From Terriglobia bacterium (lineage in GTDB: Bacteria; Acidobacteriota; Terriglobia; Terriglobales; Acidobacteriaceae): 64,000 bases of DNA. Every line of letters begins with the position of its first letter. Positions within the stretch are counted from its first letter, which is position 1. The notes under the pieces were generated by a model, which was given only the letters and a program-made list of their open reading frames with translations, did not search any database and was not told the origin of the DNA. The position numbers and the translations under genes were made by a program. Below are positions 2,488 through 55,260 of this stretch, piece by piece. The DNA is taken from positions 79,964 through 143,963 of the forward strand of contig CAWDFF010000042.1 in NCBI GenBank assembly GCA_963801545.1, in the 5' to 3' direction.

Positions 2488-2567
2488 GGTTTCCAGTTTC
2501 CAGTTTCCAGTTTCCAGTTTCTTGTGTCCGGTTCGATGCCGGAAACTGGAAACCAGAAACTGAAAAC
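2488..2567. repeat. heptamer-repeat hairpin between tsf and pyrH
   Basis: Left arm (GTTTCCA)x4-5 at 2488-2522. Complementary right arm GGAAACT GGAAACC AGAAACT GAAAACC at 2540-2567. Confidence 0.85.
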
Positions 2568-3222
2568 CTATTCGCTTTTCTGTTCCGGCTTGGTGATCGC
2601 GATGGTCTCACCCGGATCGCCCACTTTGAAGCGCGCGAAACGGCGGACCGCGATGTTCTCGCCCAGCTTGCCGATCTTGGTGGCAATGAGCTGGCCGATG
2701 CTGACCGTCTGGTCCCGGATGAAAGGCTGCTCCAGGAGACAGACTTCCTCATAAAACTTGCTCATCTTGCCTTCCACAATCTTCTCCACGACTTGCGGGG
2801 GCTTTCCGGTCGCCGCAGCCTGGGCGCGGTAAATATCCTTTTCGCGCTCGAAGGCCTCGGGCGTGACGTCTTCCTTGCGCACGAACTTCGGGTCGCTGGC
2901 CGCGATGTGCATCGCGATGTCGTGCACCAGTTCCTTGAAATCATCGGTGCGCGCCACAAAGTCACTCTCGCAGTTAACTTCCAGAAGGACGCCGATCTTG
3001 CCGCCAGCGTGAATGTAACTGGCGACTGCGCCTTCGCTGGTCATACGACCCGCCTTCCGTTCCGCGATGCTGGCACCACGCTTGCGCAGCAGAATGACTG
3101 CCTGCTTCATGGTCGCCCTTCGCATCAACCAGGGCCTTCTTGCAGTCCATCATCGGCGCCCCGGTCTTTTCCCGGAGCTCTTTCACTTGCGCGGCAGAAA
3201 TATTCACGGTAGATGTGCTCAT
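2568..3222 (-). pseudogene. tsf: elongation factor Ts, interrupted by a single-base frameshift
   Basis: Track piece 2974..3222 starts [37 protein letters not shown] (EF-Ts N-terminus) and then turns to nonsense. Piece 2568..3128 carries the rest ([34 protein letters not shown]...). The coding strand reads AAG GGC GAC C ATG AAG. Removing one C (plus-strand G near 3111) gives an uninterrupted 217-aa short-form EF-Ts. Confidence 0.85.
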
Positions 3223-3257
3223 TGTCTAGATTATTCCAGATTGTTGTTTCTATTTTA

Positions 3258-3330
3258 CGTCGTTGGTCGGTAGTCGTTGGTCGTTGGCTGTAAAGAAACT
3301 CTGGGCGACTGGCCAACGACGAACGACCAG
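3258..3330. repeat. heptamer-repeat hairpin (GGTCGTT)n / CCAACGAC arms
   Basis: CGTCGTTGGTCGGTAGTCGTTGGTCGTTGGC at 3258-3288 pairs with GGCCAACGACGAACGACCAG at 3311-3330. A further CCAACGACC arm lies at 3405-3437. Confidence 0.8.
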
Positions 3331-3439
3331 CAGAAGCCCTGACAAACGTTGACCCGCGCCGGACGACCCGCGCGGGTCCGATTTCCCTCAGGGGCTAGGG
3401 TCTTGGCCAACGACCAAAGACAAACGACCAACGACGGTG

Positions 3440-52576: not shown

Positions 52577-52595
52577 TGAGCTTCAAACCTACCTT

Positions 52596-53053
52596 GTCAT
52601 CCTGAGCGAGGCCGCTTCTTCGCTTGCGAAGAAGCGGAGAGTCGAAGGACCCCTACTCCCTCATGCGATCTCGACGAGAGCGACGAAGCTACTACGTTTA
52701 CGTCATGGCGAGCCTCTCAGGCACACTCTACATCGGCTTGACGAGCAATCTGCACAAGCGAGCGTTCGAGCACAAGTTTCACCGGATCGAAGGTTTCACC
52801 GATGATTACGACGTCGAGCGCCTTCTCTACTGGGAGTCGTACGATGATGTTCACAAAGCTATCGGGCGCGAGAAGCAACTGAAGGGCTGGCGGCGGGACA
52901 AGAAGATTGTATTGATCAAGTCCATGAATCCGCAGTGGCTGGACTTGAGTAAAGACTGGTATCCGGGAATGGACGATCGTTCCGAGGGTAGGGGTGCTTC
53001 GACTGCGAATGAGCGGTCGCCAGCGACCGCTCTTCCTACGCTCAGCATGACAG
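52596..53053 (+). mobile_element. palindromic-end element carrying a GIY-YIG nuclease gene (candidate autonomous MITE parent)
   Basis: The left end is GTCATCCTGAGCG + palindrome + GTCGAAGGACCCCTAC (52596-52656). The right end is GTAGGGGTGCTTCGAC + palindrome + CGCTCAGCATGAC (to 53051). Both the outer 13-mers and the inner 16-mers are inverted repeats. Confidence 0.6.
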
Positions 53054-53070
53054 CGAAAAAGTGTGGGTGA
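52663..53070 (+). CDS. GIY-YIG nuclease family protein (small, stand-alone)
   Basis: YYVYVMASLSGTLYIGLTSNLHKRAFEH...REKQLKGWRRDKK is the GIY-YIG core. The ATG at 52663 is preferred over the track start at 52624. The C-terminal ~30 codons read through the right-end repeat. Confidence 0.85.
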   Translation: MRSRRERRSYYVYVMASLSGTLYIGLTSNLHKRAFEHKFHRIEGFTDDYDVERLLYWESYDDVHKAIGREKQLKGWRRDKKIVLIKSMNPQWLDLSKDWYPGMDDRSEGRGASTANERSPATALPTLSMTAKKCG

Positions 53071-53202
53071 AGAGCAGGTTTTTCCTCGCGATCAACGGGA
53101 TAAGCTTGTATTCCACAGCTTCTCCACAGCAATCTGATTCCGGTATATTCAAATCAGCGGCTTCCAGCCTCACAATTCCTGCGGATAGCTGTGCCTCCAG
53201 CC

Positions 53203-55260
53203 ATGACCGACTCCGGCGACTTCAAGGAAACCGTCAAGCAGCAGGCGGACATCGTTCGCATTGTGGGCGACTACGTCAAGCTGAAGAAGGCGGGGGCGCA
53301 AAACTACTCCGGCCTCTGTCCCTTTCATAACGAGAAGACGCCATCTTTTTCAGTGCACGCCACACGGCAGTTCTATCACTGCTTCGGGTGCGGCGTGTCC
53401 GGCGATGTTTTCAGCTTCGTGCAGAAAATCGAGAACATTACCTTCCCGGAAGCGGTGCGGGCCGTGGCGCAGAAGCTGGGCATTGCCCTGCCCAAAGTGA
53501 ATTTTTCGAGTCCAGCAGAGGCCAAAGAAGCAAAGTTGCGCACGGTGCTGCTTGAGGTCCATGAGAAGGCCTGCGCCTTCTTTCAGGAGTATCTCAAGCG
53601 ACCGGAAGGCGCTCACGCCCGCGAATATCTGGCCGGGCGCGGGCTGAATGAGGAGATGATCAAAGCCTTCCGGATCGGCTTTGCGCCTGACTCGGGGTTT
53701 GTGTTGCGCGACCGGATGAAGGGCGAGTTCCAGGAGGAAGTACTGCGGGAAAGCGGTCTGTTCTCGTGGAAAGTGGCAAACAGCCCTCAGCCCTCAGCCC
53801 TCAGCCCTCAGCCAAACACCAGGTCCCTCGACTCCGCCCGGGATGACGGGGAAGGGGTGGGGACGCGAAGCGATCTCGCGTCCAACGATGGTGAGCCAAC
53901 GAGCGGATTGGGTTCGCAGGTTGGGTCTCAAACCACCAGTTCTCAGATACCAGTTCTCGGTTCTCGGCCAGAGTCCGCGTCCGACGCCCGAGGTCCGGTT
54001 TTCTACTCCAAGTTCCGCAACCGGGTGCTGTTCCCCATCACCAACGAGGCCGGGCGTGTGATTGCGTTTACCGGGCGCACGCTCTCCACTGACGAAAAGG
54101 CTGGTCCTAAATATTTGAATTCGCCTGAGACCGCGATCTATTCCAAGTCGAAGGTACTGTTCAATCTCGACCGGGCAAAGGAATCGATTCGCAAGCTGGA
54201 CTATGCCATCCTGGTCGAAGGCCAGATGGACTGCATCTCGGTGTTTGCCGCCGGCTTTCACAACGTAATCGCCAGCTCGGGCACGGCGTTCACCGAGCTC
54301 CAGGCCCGTCTTCTGGGGCGCTTCAGCAAGAACGTAGTGGTCAATTTTGATCCGGATACGGCGGGCGCCAAGGCTACGGAGCGGACCCTGGGTCTGCTGG
54401 TGGAAGAAGAATTCCAGGTCAAGGTCCTTACGCTGGAGGCAGGCTTCGACCCTGATCTGTTCATCCGCAGGAAGGGTAAAGACGCCTATGCCAGCGCCCT
54501 GAGAAATTCGCAGAAGTACTTCGACTATCTGATCGAACGCGCCCGCTCCCAGTTCCCTGTCCGCAGTGCCGAGGGCAAGGTCAAGGCGGTGAACTATCTG
54601 CTGCCGCACATTCAGCGCGTGCCCAGCCGCATTGTTCGCGACGAACTAGCCCGCGAGATGGCGCAAAAGCTGGGCATCGACTCGTCCGTGCTGCGCCAGG
54701 AGCTGAAGCATGCCGCTGCCAACCGGTCCATGGCCAGCGTGAAAGCGCTCGCCGTGGTTCAGGTCACCGATGCGGAAAGGATACTGATCCGGGCCCTGGC
54801 CTCGGCCACCGAGATGCAGACTTCCGAAGAGCATCTTTCCGCCCGCGACGGCGCGGAAGAGGAATTCGATCCCGCGCGCCAGGCGCAATTTGTCCTCAAG
54901 AGCGAGAGCCTTCACCATGGGCTGGCAACCGAGTCGCTGATCGAAGTCCTGCTCGGCGCGTGGGCGGAAACCATGCACGTCACGGATCTACCGTTGCCGG
55001 ACGCCGACCGCGGATTGCTGGCCTCCATCCTCATGAAGGAGGACGAAGAGCTTACTGCCGAACGCATCGAGGGGGCGGTGCGCGGGCTGCGGCGCATTCA
55101 GCTCAGGCGCAAGTTGGAGAGGGTACAGAGGGAGCTGCAGGCCACGCGAGGACAGGGGGGCGGTCAGATGCAAGCCCTGCTGGAGGAAAAAGTCCGGCTC
55201 AAGCGGGCCCTTATGGACGCCAGTCTGGCCGATGAGGGCCCTGCCGCCCGGCCCGCGTAG
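53203..55260 (+). CDS. dnaG: DNA primase (with ~75-codon repeat-derived insertion)
   Basis: Zinc finger CPFHNEKTPSFSV..HCFGCGVSGD, RNA-pol core FRNRVLFPI..GRVIAFTGR..KYLNSPET and TOPRIM ILVEGQMDCI. Confidence 0.95.
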   Translation: MTDSGDFKETVKQQADIVRIVGDYVKLKKAGAQNYSGLCPFHNEKTPSFSVHATRQFYHCFGCGVSGDVFSFVQKIENITFPEAVRAVAQKLGIALPKVNFSSPAEAKEAKLRTVLLEVHEKACAFFQEYLKRPEGAHAREYLAGRGLNEEMIKAFRIGFAPDSGFVLRDRMKGEFQEEVLRESGLFSWKVANSPQPSALSPQPNTRSLDSARDDGEGVGTRSDLASNDGEPTSGLGSQVGSQTTSSQIPVLGSRPESASDARGPVFYSKFRNRVLFPITNEAGRVIAFTGRTLSTDEKAGPKYLNSPETAIYSKSKVLFNLDRAKESIRKLDYAILVEGQMDCISVFAAGFHNVIASSGTAFTELQARLLGRFSKNVVVNFDPDTAGAKATERTLGLLVEEEFQVKVLTLEAGFDPDLFIRRKGKDAYASALRNSQKYFDYLIERARSQFPVRSAEGKVKAVNYLLPHIQRVPSRIVRDELAREMAQKLGIDSSVLRQELKHAAANRSMASVKALAVVQVTDAERILIRALASATEMQTSEEHLSARDGAEEEFDPARQAQFVLKSESLHHGLATESLIEVLLGAWAETMHVTDLPLPDADRGLLASILMKEDEELTAERIEGAVRGLRRIQLRRKLERVQRELQATRGQGGGQMQALLEEKVRLKRALMDASLADEGPAARPA

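Follow-up and report, generated by a model that had tools for sequence, protein, structure and literature searches.

The locus considered here raises the question of what the short tandem arrays are that recur between its genes, each built on a 7-nt unit, and why their period stays constant when the sequence of the unit does not. The DNA concerned (hereafter the window) is a stretch of 64,000 nt from a Terriglobia bacterium, on contig CAWDFF010000042.1. A first-pass annotation had likened the arrays to the short tandemly repeated repetitive (STRR) sequences of heterocystous cyanobacteria, and had suggested that, as complementary arms of transcribed hairpins, they might serve in termination or mRNA stabilization. 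What that annotation missed is the link of the arrays to genes of family PF05635, which encode the intervening-sequence proteins (IVPs) known from insertions in 23S rRNA genes. That link is the principal subject of this report.

The window was searched with Tandem Repeats Finder and with a mismatch-tolerant scan over periods 2–24, the latter in comparison with ten shuffles. It is apparent that 7 is the only enriched tandem period in the window, as the first-pass annotation had led one to expect. The mismatch-tolerant scan recovered 20 period-7 regions (778 nt), against 0.0 in the shuffles; the multiples 14 and 21 gave 11 and 5 regions, and every other period gave 0–2. Exact self-match runs were seen only at period 7 (7 runs) and period 14 (5 runs). 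The arrays, typically 3–8 units of 7 nt in length, occupy about 17 spacers and represent at least 10 unit families, none of them with G3 runs, which bears out the earlier count of 15 or more gaps with differing units. Tandem Repeats Finder also reports the arrays at the individual positions first listed, with the exception of an AT-rich one at 44637, whose period is 8/16 and not 7. Inside arrays, units drift by single substitutions (GTCAGAC > GTCAGGC > GTCGTTC > GTCGTTG). The location in intergenic DNA stands for 19 of the 20 regions but fails for the array at 53781–53813, which lies in frame within the dnaG open reading frame (ORF), and the description of the spacers as 'saturated' was too strong, since the arrays cluster in 2–36 kb and most of the spacers in 36–64 kb have none. 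Independent ENA and JGI metagenome assemblies contain these same arrays, and an assembly artefact was thereby ruled out. CRISPR was dismissed as well, there being neither spacers nor long regular repeats of that kind.

A strict array was scored as paired if a reverse-complement partner, matching at 17 or more of 21 positions, was present within 450 nt. Such partners were found for 9 of the 20 strict arrays (null, 4%), and direct partners for 2 of 20; a few more arrays pair weakly or at a distance of about 460 nt. Pairing is thus above the null but involves about half of the arrays, and not nearly every one as had been proposed. Where arms are composite, as at 5605–5862, the different unit types are indeed concatenated in the same order on both (57-nt arms, 77% complementary). 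The expected folding into hairpins was observed for spacers with paired arms, which fold well beyond shuffles on both strands (z = −5 to −11), but not for those of the unpaired arrays (4982, 6989, 15094, 24964, 27848, 35570 and 53781), which fold no better than shuffles.

One of the paired arrays encloses a gene. The ORF at 11288–11662 encodes a protein of 124 aa that matches PF05635 (Pfam, E = 3.6e-34), TIGR02436 (E = 9.6e-34) and PDB entry 2gsc (E = 2.2e-25), the solved relative being XCC0516 of X. campestris. The ORF is situated in the loop between terminal inverted repeats made of heptamers (Table 1), and the cassette as a whole has the AI-2E transporter gene on one side and carD on the other, and is not in a 23S rRNA helix. 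In other strains the same spacer contains either an IVP allele that is approximately 54–62% identical, on the opposite strand and with CGGACCTC/GAGGTCTG arms, or a frameshifted copy.

The arrangement is not peculiar to this cassette. IVP genes were analysed in 80 loci from Terriglobia (76 of which were scored) and in 58 non-acidobacterial loci, retrieved with a Xanthomonas protein query, from Proteobacteria, Bacteroidota, Planctomycetota, Desulfobacterota, Ignavibacteriota, Gemmatimonadota, Omnitrophota, Synergistota, Clostridia, candidate phyla radiation bacteria and others. A gene was considered bracketed when complementary 21-mers (at least 17 of 21 positions) were present, one in each of the two 350-nt segments that flank the ORF. 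Complementary arms bracket 62 of the 76 Terriglobia IVP genes (displaced controls, 7 of 76) and 43 of the 58 from other phyla (displaced controls, 3 of 58), whereas ordinary small genes from the same kinds of genome were bracketed in 2% and 4% of cases, respectively. The period of these flanks was likewise marked. In Terriglobia there were 158 arrays per 100 kb of flank at period 7, 89 at period 14 and no more than 1.6 at any other, with many different units; in the other phyla there were 135 at period 7, 12 at period 8 and 5 at period 9, with units unrelated between loci. The corresponding values for period 7 in the flanks of ordinary small genes were 12.9 (Terriglobia) and 0.9 (other phyla). 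The median number of units per cassette arm is 4.1. In Terriglobia the 5′ arm stops about 105 nt (median) upstream of the ORF, in most other phyla about 20–100 nt upstream, and the 3′ arm begins about 20 nt past the IVP stop codon. In the literature searched, the link between IVPs and heptamers was found described only in one note on Coxiella, of which no generalization was found.

Similarity of the arms was correlated with similarity of the IVPs (rho = 0.46, 0 of 300 permutations). This covariation was not used as a sign of recognition or mobility, because cassettes with IVP identity of 65% or more mostly share their flanking genes (82–97%), and vertical inheritance therefore explains it. The shared flanking genes, together with the recurrent carD/AI-2E neighbourhood, indicate that gene and arms have long been retained at one locus with the unit diverging. 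As regards that neighbourhood, 33 of the 80 Terriglobia loci (L089–L168) adjoin carD and/or the AI-2E transporter gene, in both orientations and with alleles only 50–60% identical; it may represent a conserved insertion site or a functional neighbourhood.

The units of arrays that lack an IVP gene were compared with those of the cassettes. Among 61 such solo-array units, 34% equal a Terriglobia cassette-arm unit in some rotation or on either strand, compared with 3.9% (maximum, 13%) for letter-shuffled units and 5% for arms from other phyla. Since solo hairpins and arrays share unit families with the Terriglobia cassettes, they are read here as ORF-less relatives of cassettes of the intervening-sequence (IVS) type. 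A parallel is found in Pseudoxanthomonas and Xanthomonas, where an IVP gene between accB and accC is flanked by GGGAAT(A/C/G) heptamers, the arm unit being that of a repeat which is dispersed in Xanthomonas and often paired. STRR1-type arrays (GGGGAYT ×3) were scanned for and recovered at 120 loci, in which one cyanobacterial IVP gene had GGGGAYT arrays on one side and ARTCCCC arrays on the other, and period-8 arms were seen at the IVP gene of a planctomycete; the link between STRR sequences and IVPs in cyanobacteria is accordingly suggestive but not significant.

Several metagenome contigs are 92–99.7% identical to the window and have its gene order, and this permits comparison at the level of strains. 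Near-identical strains differ in their arrays by complete 7-nt units: the array at 11137 has four GGTCTTT units in the window and three in L085 (99% identical), one TCAGCAC unit is absent in another strain, and the 7-nt changes include one at 9482–9502 and one in the carD/greA arm. The two arms of a hairpin change together, as at 9155/9546, where both are 15 nt longer in L081. Palindromic modules appear, vanish or are exchanged at hairpin centres. A palindromic piece of 134 nt is either present or cleanly absent (L081) at the centre of a short palindrome, between GTCATCCCGAGCG and CTCGGGATGAC. The module (GGTCGTT)n, CACGGAT-iteron hairpin, (CCAACGA)n occupies, according to strain, either the rplM-macB spacer or a site downstream of the outer-membrane receptor gene, and two unrelated hairpins are found at the latter site in different strains. 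Spacers without arrays (7959–8132, 22091–22230 and 55261–55489) are constant in length across strains.

Two palindromic families deserve separate mention. Hairpins with three CACGGAT iterons per arm, about 10–11 nt apart (AGCCACGGATTTCACGGATTTTCACGGATC ... ATCCGTGtgaATCCGTGcaaATCCGTGGCT), constitute a separate family, with members in the window (1675–1765, 5677–5775 and 19933–20016), in L001 (13948–14095) and in L026 (2904–3010). They often, not always, lie between GGTCGTT/CCAACGA arrays, are present also in other genera and have no Rfam match. A palindromic repeat of approximately 100–134 nt (GCGAAGAAAGATTGTCGAGGGACCTGGGTT...) occurs at 9276–9400 and 25042–25141, and a motif linked to it (GTCATCCYGAGCG...GTCGARGGACC) occurs also at 52590–52650 and 53829–53855.

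The feature extends beyond strains. Relatives with DnaG identity of at least about 63% have 5.9 period-7 regions per 100 kb of locus, compared with 0.5 for non-acidobacterial loci from the same search and almost none for more distant Acidobacteriaceae; the presence of arrays in close relatives is thereby confirmed, and period 7 is a lineage-specific feature not limited to the genome of the window. In the orthologous AI-2E transporter/carD spacer of Terriglobia, at least four families of arm unit were found, with period 7 and arm pairing retained, so the constant period with variable unit that had been deduced from the window holds in an orthologous-spacer comparison. The conclusion once drawn from it, that simple descent from one repeat is not involved, is no more than half right, as units drift stepwise and are inherited with the locus.

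The array inside dnaG belongs to a larger insert. In the window and about 22 relatives, dnaG has an in-frame hypervariable insert of 25–150 aa at one site, between SGLFSWK and YSKFRNRVMFPI. The insert consists of period-7 arrays, the unit differing per species and the arms complementary in some (L010, L013); a further module in it encodes 'RSLDSARDD' and has its match in a different local repeat family. In more distant Acidobacteriaceae only a short turn is found at this site, and in solved DnaG structures it is a turn of 4 residues. Long and short alleles, net 90 nt apart, exist in strains with identical RpoD. Folding gave no hairpin potential for the insert of the window. These observations indicate that repeat material spreads to any site able to tolerate it, a behaviour easier to reconcile with a selfish or mutational origin than with a regulatory one. 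The elements have persisted in all places that accommodate a long inverted repeat, namely spacers of every orientation and a single surface turn of DnaG, in which their translation is in frame. The 'RSLDSARDD' module is, in several species, a condensed copy of the linked motif mentioned above. As a hypervariable in-frame insert in an essential primase gene, the segment could serve as a strain marker.

The arrays of the window are best regarded, on these data, as ORF-less relatives or derivatives of IVS-type PF05635 cassettes, shaped by slippage of units, concerted change of arms, nesting at hairpin centres and maintenance at the DNA level; we give this reading about an even chance of being correct. 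The spacers are, on this view, colonized by fast-evolving palindromic DNA modules, in most of which the arms are short 7-nt tandem arrays. The complementarity of the arms, which is strand-symmetric, would be upheld in the DNA itself, whether the arms represent one set of sites present twice in inverted orientation or are copied from one to the other, and any effects on transcripts (RNase III cleavage as in rRNA IVSs, or protection of 3′ ends) would be a by-product and not the cause of the elements. For the 7-nt ruler, the most economical candidates are the IVP or its partner machinery, or a slippage bias of the replicase.

Several observations weigh against this reading. The 64-kb window contains a single IVP gene, and approximately 730 kb of dnaG-neighbourhood loci, with 43 arrays, contain none. 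A tblastn search with 147 IVP proteins detected no IVP remnant in any hairpin loop; solo hairpins also vastly outnumber IVP genes, so that their descent from cassettes is argued from shared units only, and the more specific idea that solo hairpins are decayed cassettes was set aside. The shared flanks of cassettes with IVP identity of 65% or more provide little direct evidence of recent mobility. About half of the arrays are unpaired, and for these plain slippage is an equally good explanation. The cyanobacterial link consists of 1 of 120 loci, and the Xanthomonas vasicola locus falls below the arm threshold (15/21), although heptamers are visible on its 5′ side. No trans-acting enzyme was identified, and the binding or making of arrays by the IVP is a candidate role only.

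It may further be proposed, although on balance this is doubtful, that PF05635 genes with inverted heptamer arms form one pan-bacterial class of element. The 23S rRNA IVS would then be one insertion context, and the bacterial heptamer excess (cyanobacterial STRR sequences, Xanthomonas GGGAATC, the arrays of the window) would be largely the ORF-less offspring of such elements; the IVP, or machinery recruited by it, would read or write the 7-nt register, and the dnaG insert would be a copy domesticated as a linker. If this were true, two puzzles would be joined, namely why heptanucleotides are favoured as a long simple repeat and what the widespread '23S rRNA intervening-sequence/S23' proteins do. 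With 74–82% of IVP genes across phyla having complementary arms almost exclusively of period 7, both become one testable question.

Other explanations must be weighed against descent from IVS-type cassettes. The suggestion made at the outset, that the hairpins are RNA structures selected because transcripts need them as unconventional terminators, as stabilizers of mRNA 3′ ends or as RNase III sites, would account for the position of many arms, several of which begin 3–10 nt past a stop codon (11137, 15091, 19132, 31842 and 35563), for the strong folding of paired spacers and for the unrelated hairpins that occupy one post-stop site in different strains; the stems of rRNA IVSs, moreover, are RNase III substrates. 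The scarcity of classical T-tract terminators also held up, in that a consensus scan gave 17 sites against 21.9 expected, none of them reported at a heptamer stem. The stems themselves, however, have no U-tract, the arms being followed by start codons or unrelated sequence, and the elements are found also in divergent promoter spacers (12279–12726 and 30913–31289) and in coding sequence. The transcribed strand folds better in 8 of 11 spacers with solo hairpins in the window, which is not significant, and in 108 IVP cassette stems no excess of G·U over A·C mismatches was seen on the ORF strand (172 versus 184, p = 0.56). Half of the arrays have no hairpin, and near-identical strains differ both in the presence and in the size of arms. 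The absence of a G·U excess, the 8 of 11 strands, the lack of U-tracts, and the location in divergent spacers and in a gene argue against selection of an RNA stem and for a strand-symmetric, DNA-level cause. None of the three tests applied to the terminator reading (consensus scan, sense versus antisense folding, G·U versus A·C) was supportive, and a role of the arrays in termination or mRNA stabilization is distinctly improbable.

A purely mutational origin as simple sequence repeats (SSRs) seems unlikely, although somewhat less so; here the replicase would slip preferentially by 7 nt, imperfect palindromes would be corrected by intrastrand template switching, and IVP genes would merely land or survive in hairpins. 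The whole-unit changes between strains at 99% identity are what slippage would produce, and the unpaired half of the arrays, their presence in a tolerant loop of dnaG, the heptamer excess reported for many bacteria and the strand symmetry of arm mismatches are all in keeping with it. It is difficult to reconcile, however, with flanks of IVP genes that have about 150 times the period-7 arrays of ordinary small-gene flanks in phyla with a background of about 1 per 100 kb; it leaves unexplained the lineage-specific units common to solo arrays and local cassettes; and distant Acidobacteriaceae, with comparable replication machinery, are almost without arrays. Mobilization as miniature elements, by a transposase encoded elsewhere that recognizes the arms and moves the modules, in the manner of REPINs or of MITEs (miniature transposable elements with inverted repeats), would explain the presence or absence of modules at one site among strains, the occurrence of the GGTCGTT-CACGGAT-CCAACGA module in different spacers according to strain and the nesting of insertions at hairpin centres. 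Such an origin is very improbable nevertheless, in view of the lack of target-site duplications at the clean 134-nt indel and at cassette ends, the absence of a transposase or RAYT (REP-associated tyrosine transposase) gene among the genes of the window, the many unit sequences in place of one conserved repeat, and the stability of most cassettes at their loci.

An excess of heptamers is not in itself new: many bacteria are reported to have one, and in Xanthomonas paired arrays close to stop codons have been described. In a 2007 survey of SSRs, as cited in PMC4692102 and PMC4679880, period 7 was the most over-represented class of long SSR, mainly intergenic, and slippage was proposed; the idea of a polymerase footprint behind 7-nt slippage is attributed to the same survey. 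The window resembles this picture, with 20 regions at period 7, mainly intergenic, against 0–2 at other, non-multiple periods. The account in the survey, as cited, is statistical, and in that form does not address arm pairing, nested modules or an associated gene. The GGGAATC arrays of Xanthomonas (Rehm et al. 2015, PMC4692102) are intergenic heptamers, many of them in convergent stem-loop pairs (70–75 pairs per genome), biased to positions just past stop codons, typically of about 4 units, and variable in length between related species with the type kept. The arrays of the window likewise occur in convergent pairs capable of forming stem-loops (9/20 versus the 4% null). They differ in having at least 10 families, no G3 tracts and nested multi-unit arms, where Xanthomonas has a single G-rich unit studied as a G-quadruplex former, and the host belongs to another phylum. 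PMC4692102 draws no link to the S23p/IVP proteins; the GGGAAT-type unit at the Xanthomonadaceae IVP gene was found here.

For Nostoc PCC 7120, GGGGAYT arrays are known as STRR sequences, few of which are reported as paired (PMC4692102). The original comparison with cyanobacterial STRR sequences (Calothrix/Nostoc) is apt, in that these too are tandem heptamers with several unit types per genome and are mostly intergenic. The host here, however, is a member of the Terriglobia and not a heterocystous cyanobacterium, and no unit in the window equals GGGGAYT (STRR1). GGTCGTT is one mismatch from STRR2, the sequence of which we take to be TTGGTCA. Elhai and co-workers are said to have described, in 2008, the insertion of small dispersed repeats into STRR-type heptamer arrays.

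The closest counterpart of the cassettes is the 23S rRNA IVS with an S23p ORF, known from Coxiella, Leptospira and Brucella (Warrier et al. 2016, PMC4990558). In Coxiella a 28-bp stem of terminal inverted repeats has the S23p ORF in its loop; ahead of the ORF are two or three GACAGAT heptamers, according to strain, with the 5′ RNase III cut at the first of them (PMC4990558). The cassette at 11137–11697 similarly has a PF05635 ORF in an inverted-repeat loop with tandem heptamers. Unlike the 23S rRNA IVS, which resides in an rRNA gene and is excised from the rRNA, the cassettes described here lie between protein genes, most of the hairpins are without an ORF, and the G·U comparison shows no sign of selection on RNA. 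REPINs and RAYTs (Bertels & Rainey 2011, PMC3116915) provide a further comparison: REPs are single conserved palindromes of about 20–25 nt, and the RAYT is a Y1 transposase. In both systems, dispersed intergenic hairpin repeats greatly outnumber a protein gene flanked by the same repeats, and an ORF-less population is proposed to be related to the gene-bearing copy. The elements considered here, in contrast, have many tandem heptamer units and arms of variable length, and the IVP is an Avd-like pentameric four-helix bundle and not a Y1 transposase. They have inverted arms but, unlike MITEs, no target-site duplication at the 134-nt indel or at cassette ends, and unlike intrinsic (Rho-independent) terminators their stems have no U-tract.

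The individual elements of the window are listed in Table 1. As far as annotation is concerned, they explain a large share of the hypervariability of Terriglobia spacers, and caution is advised in calling such stems terminators.

Table 1. Repeat elements located in the 64,000-nt window. Folding z scores are relative to shuffles; repeat units separated by a solidus or by 'against' are as found on the element or on its two arms.
Position	Element and location	Arms or units	Folding z	Other strains
2485..2571	Hairpin filling the entire tsf-pyrH spacer	(GTTTCCA)4.7 against GGAAACT-type arm; 31-nt arms, 87% complementary	−5.8 and −8.0	Unchanged in L081 and L082
3258..3436	rpsB-tsf spacer	GGTCGTT arm and two CCAACGA arms (3312–3331, 3406–3436); 31-nt arms, 90% complementary	about −7	
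4448..4494	Short hairpin, rpsB-rpsI spacer	GTACCCG / TACTGGG		Other repeats instead in L083 and L086
4898..5013	Two unpaired arrays, rpsI-rplM spacer	TCAGC-type and GAAAC-type	about +0.6	Spacer of 116, 108, 102 or 101 nt by strain, via array length
5605..5862	Nested composite	Outer GTCAGAC-type arms; inner GGTCGTT/CCAACGA arms; CACGGAT-iteron hairpin core 5677–5775	−11.5	Inner module missing in L084 and L087; one arm 20 nt shorter in L082
6982..7030	Unpaired array beside small unrelated hairpin	GCTACTG-type		
9155..9546	Nested composite, ruvX-yceG	Outer GGTCGTT/CCAACGA arms; inner GGCGTCA / GCTGAGT arrays; 134-nt palindromic insert (9276–9400) centred between GTCATCCCGAGCG and CTCGGGATGAC		
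11137..11697 (+)	Complete IVP cassette, PF05635 ORF 11288–11662	5′ arm GGTCTTT/GGTCGTT units 11145–11209; 3′ arm AACGACC units 11669–11697		
12351..12708	Divergent carD-greA spacer	CGGACCTCAGGCGC / GAGGTCCGACGCC arms, 51 nt, 73% complementary; right arm borders conserved GGTTTATAAT		7-nt length difference at 99% strain identity
15094..15126	Unpaired array starting 3 nt past asparaginase stop codon	CAGTTGT/CAGTTCT	−0.7	
19128..19237	Hairpin directly 3′ of outer-membrane receptor gene	CGGACGT / GTCTGAG	−5.9 (+ strand)	GGTCGTT-CACGGAT-CCAACGA module instead in four other strains
24964..24994	Unpaired array, divergent spacer	GCTGTCA		
31035..31148	Hairpin, divergent spacer	GGTCGTC/GGTCGTT against GACCAAC; 29-nt arms, 86% complementary	−5.7 and −7.5	
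31847..31965	Arm followed by longest array	CGTCAGA arm, then (TGAGGTC)10.4	−4.3 (+ strand)	
32056..32227	Arms separated by 122 nt	GGTCGTT / CCAACGA; 25-nt arms, 84% complementary		
33484..33644	Hairpin	GCTCTCA/GCCGTCA against GCTGAAA/GCTGAGA; 31-nt arms, 87% complementary	about −6	
35563..35723	Heptamers in 109-nt tandem duplication	CAGTTCT-type		
44637..44717	AT-rich hairpin, convergent genes	Arm period 8/16, not 7	−5.1 and −6.1	
53775..53997 (+)	In-frame hypervariable dnaG insert	(CAGCCCT)4.7; GGTCCCTCGAC...GGGATGAC module; CAGTTCT units; CCGACGCCCGAGGTCCG		
63797..63867	Hairpin with period-9 arms	CTTTGCGCC / CGCAAAGAG		Only in the window and the closest strain

Two further repeat structures were noted in the window. 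At 13906–14137 there is a nested inverted repeat (46-nt arms, 83% complementary, and 23-nt arms, 96% complementary), which holds the only convincing T-tract terminator-like hairpins (GCCGAGCGCAGCTCGGCAGTTTT), one per strand, around the pgsA-asparaginase junction. The 109-nt tandem duplication at 35512–35708 (1.8 copies, 90% identical) covers heptamers together with the 3′ end of the dual-specificity phosphatase gene that precedes them.

As judged from DnaG, which is 80% identical to that of uncultured Terriglobia metagenome-assembled genomes, and from gene content, the window is a housekeeping stretch of the chromosome of an uncultured member of the Terriglobia (Acidobacteriota). Its G+C content is approximately 58%, and its genes include frr, pyrH, tsf, rpsB, rpsI, rplM, ruvX, carD, greA and pgsA, as well as a CarboxypepD_reg-type TonB-dependent receptor, a PD40 Ser/Thr kinase, 2-oxoacid dehydrogenase genes, mutS2, dnaG, rpoD and dnaB. 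Scans of the window with Rfam (at gathering thresholds) and for tRNAs gave no match, no rRNA is present within it, and an exact-DNA search of a genome collection with one spacer gave none either. Single-base indels relative to both near-identical strains occur within coding sequences at approximately 3100, 8239, 8554 and other sites, where they disrupt the tsf and yceG reading frames; errors in a long-read consensus are suggested rather than real frameshifts.

The region between rpoD and dnaB is variable. In the window it contains genes for a HigB-like toxin (PF05015) and a helix-turn-helix antitoxin (57270–57916, minus strand); strain L250 has a MerR-family and other genes there, and L251, L252 and L253 have no called gene. 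The dnaB ORF (58503–60125) is 540 aa as read, with the DnaB N-terminal domain beginning at residue 97, and includes a period-11 repeat at 58660–58697. Since dnaB is called at 440–455 aa in the strains, the N-terminal extension in the window may not be translated. The 753-nt 'spacer' at 46137–46889 contains an ORF of 73 aa of the superinfection-immunity family (46672–46893, PF14373), and a direct repeat of about 60 nt at approximately 46145 and 46508. Finally, a small GIY-YIG ORF (52624–53070; Pfam, E = 1.2e-11) is situated between two direct, hairpin-containing repeats of about 75 nt (52436–53190). In strains L251 and L252 the ORF is missing and the repeat is present only once, and the segment looks like a mobile GIY-YIG element with target duplication.

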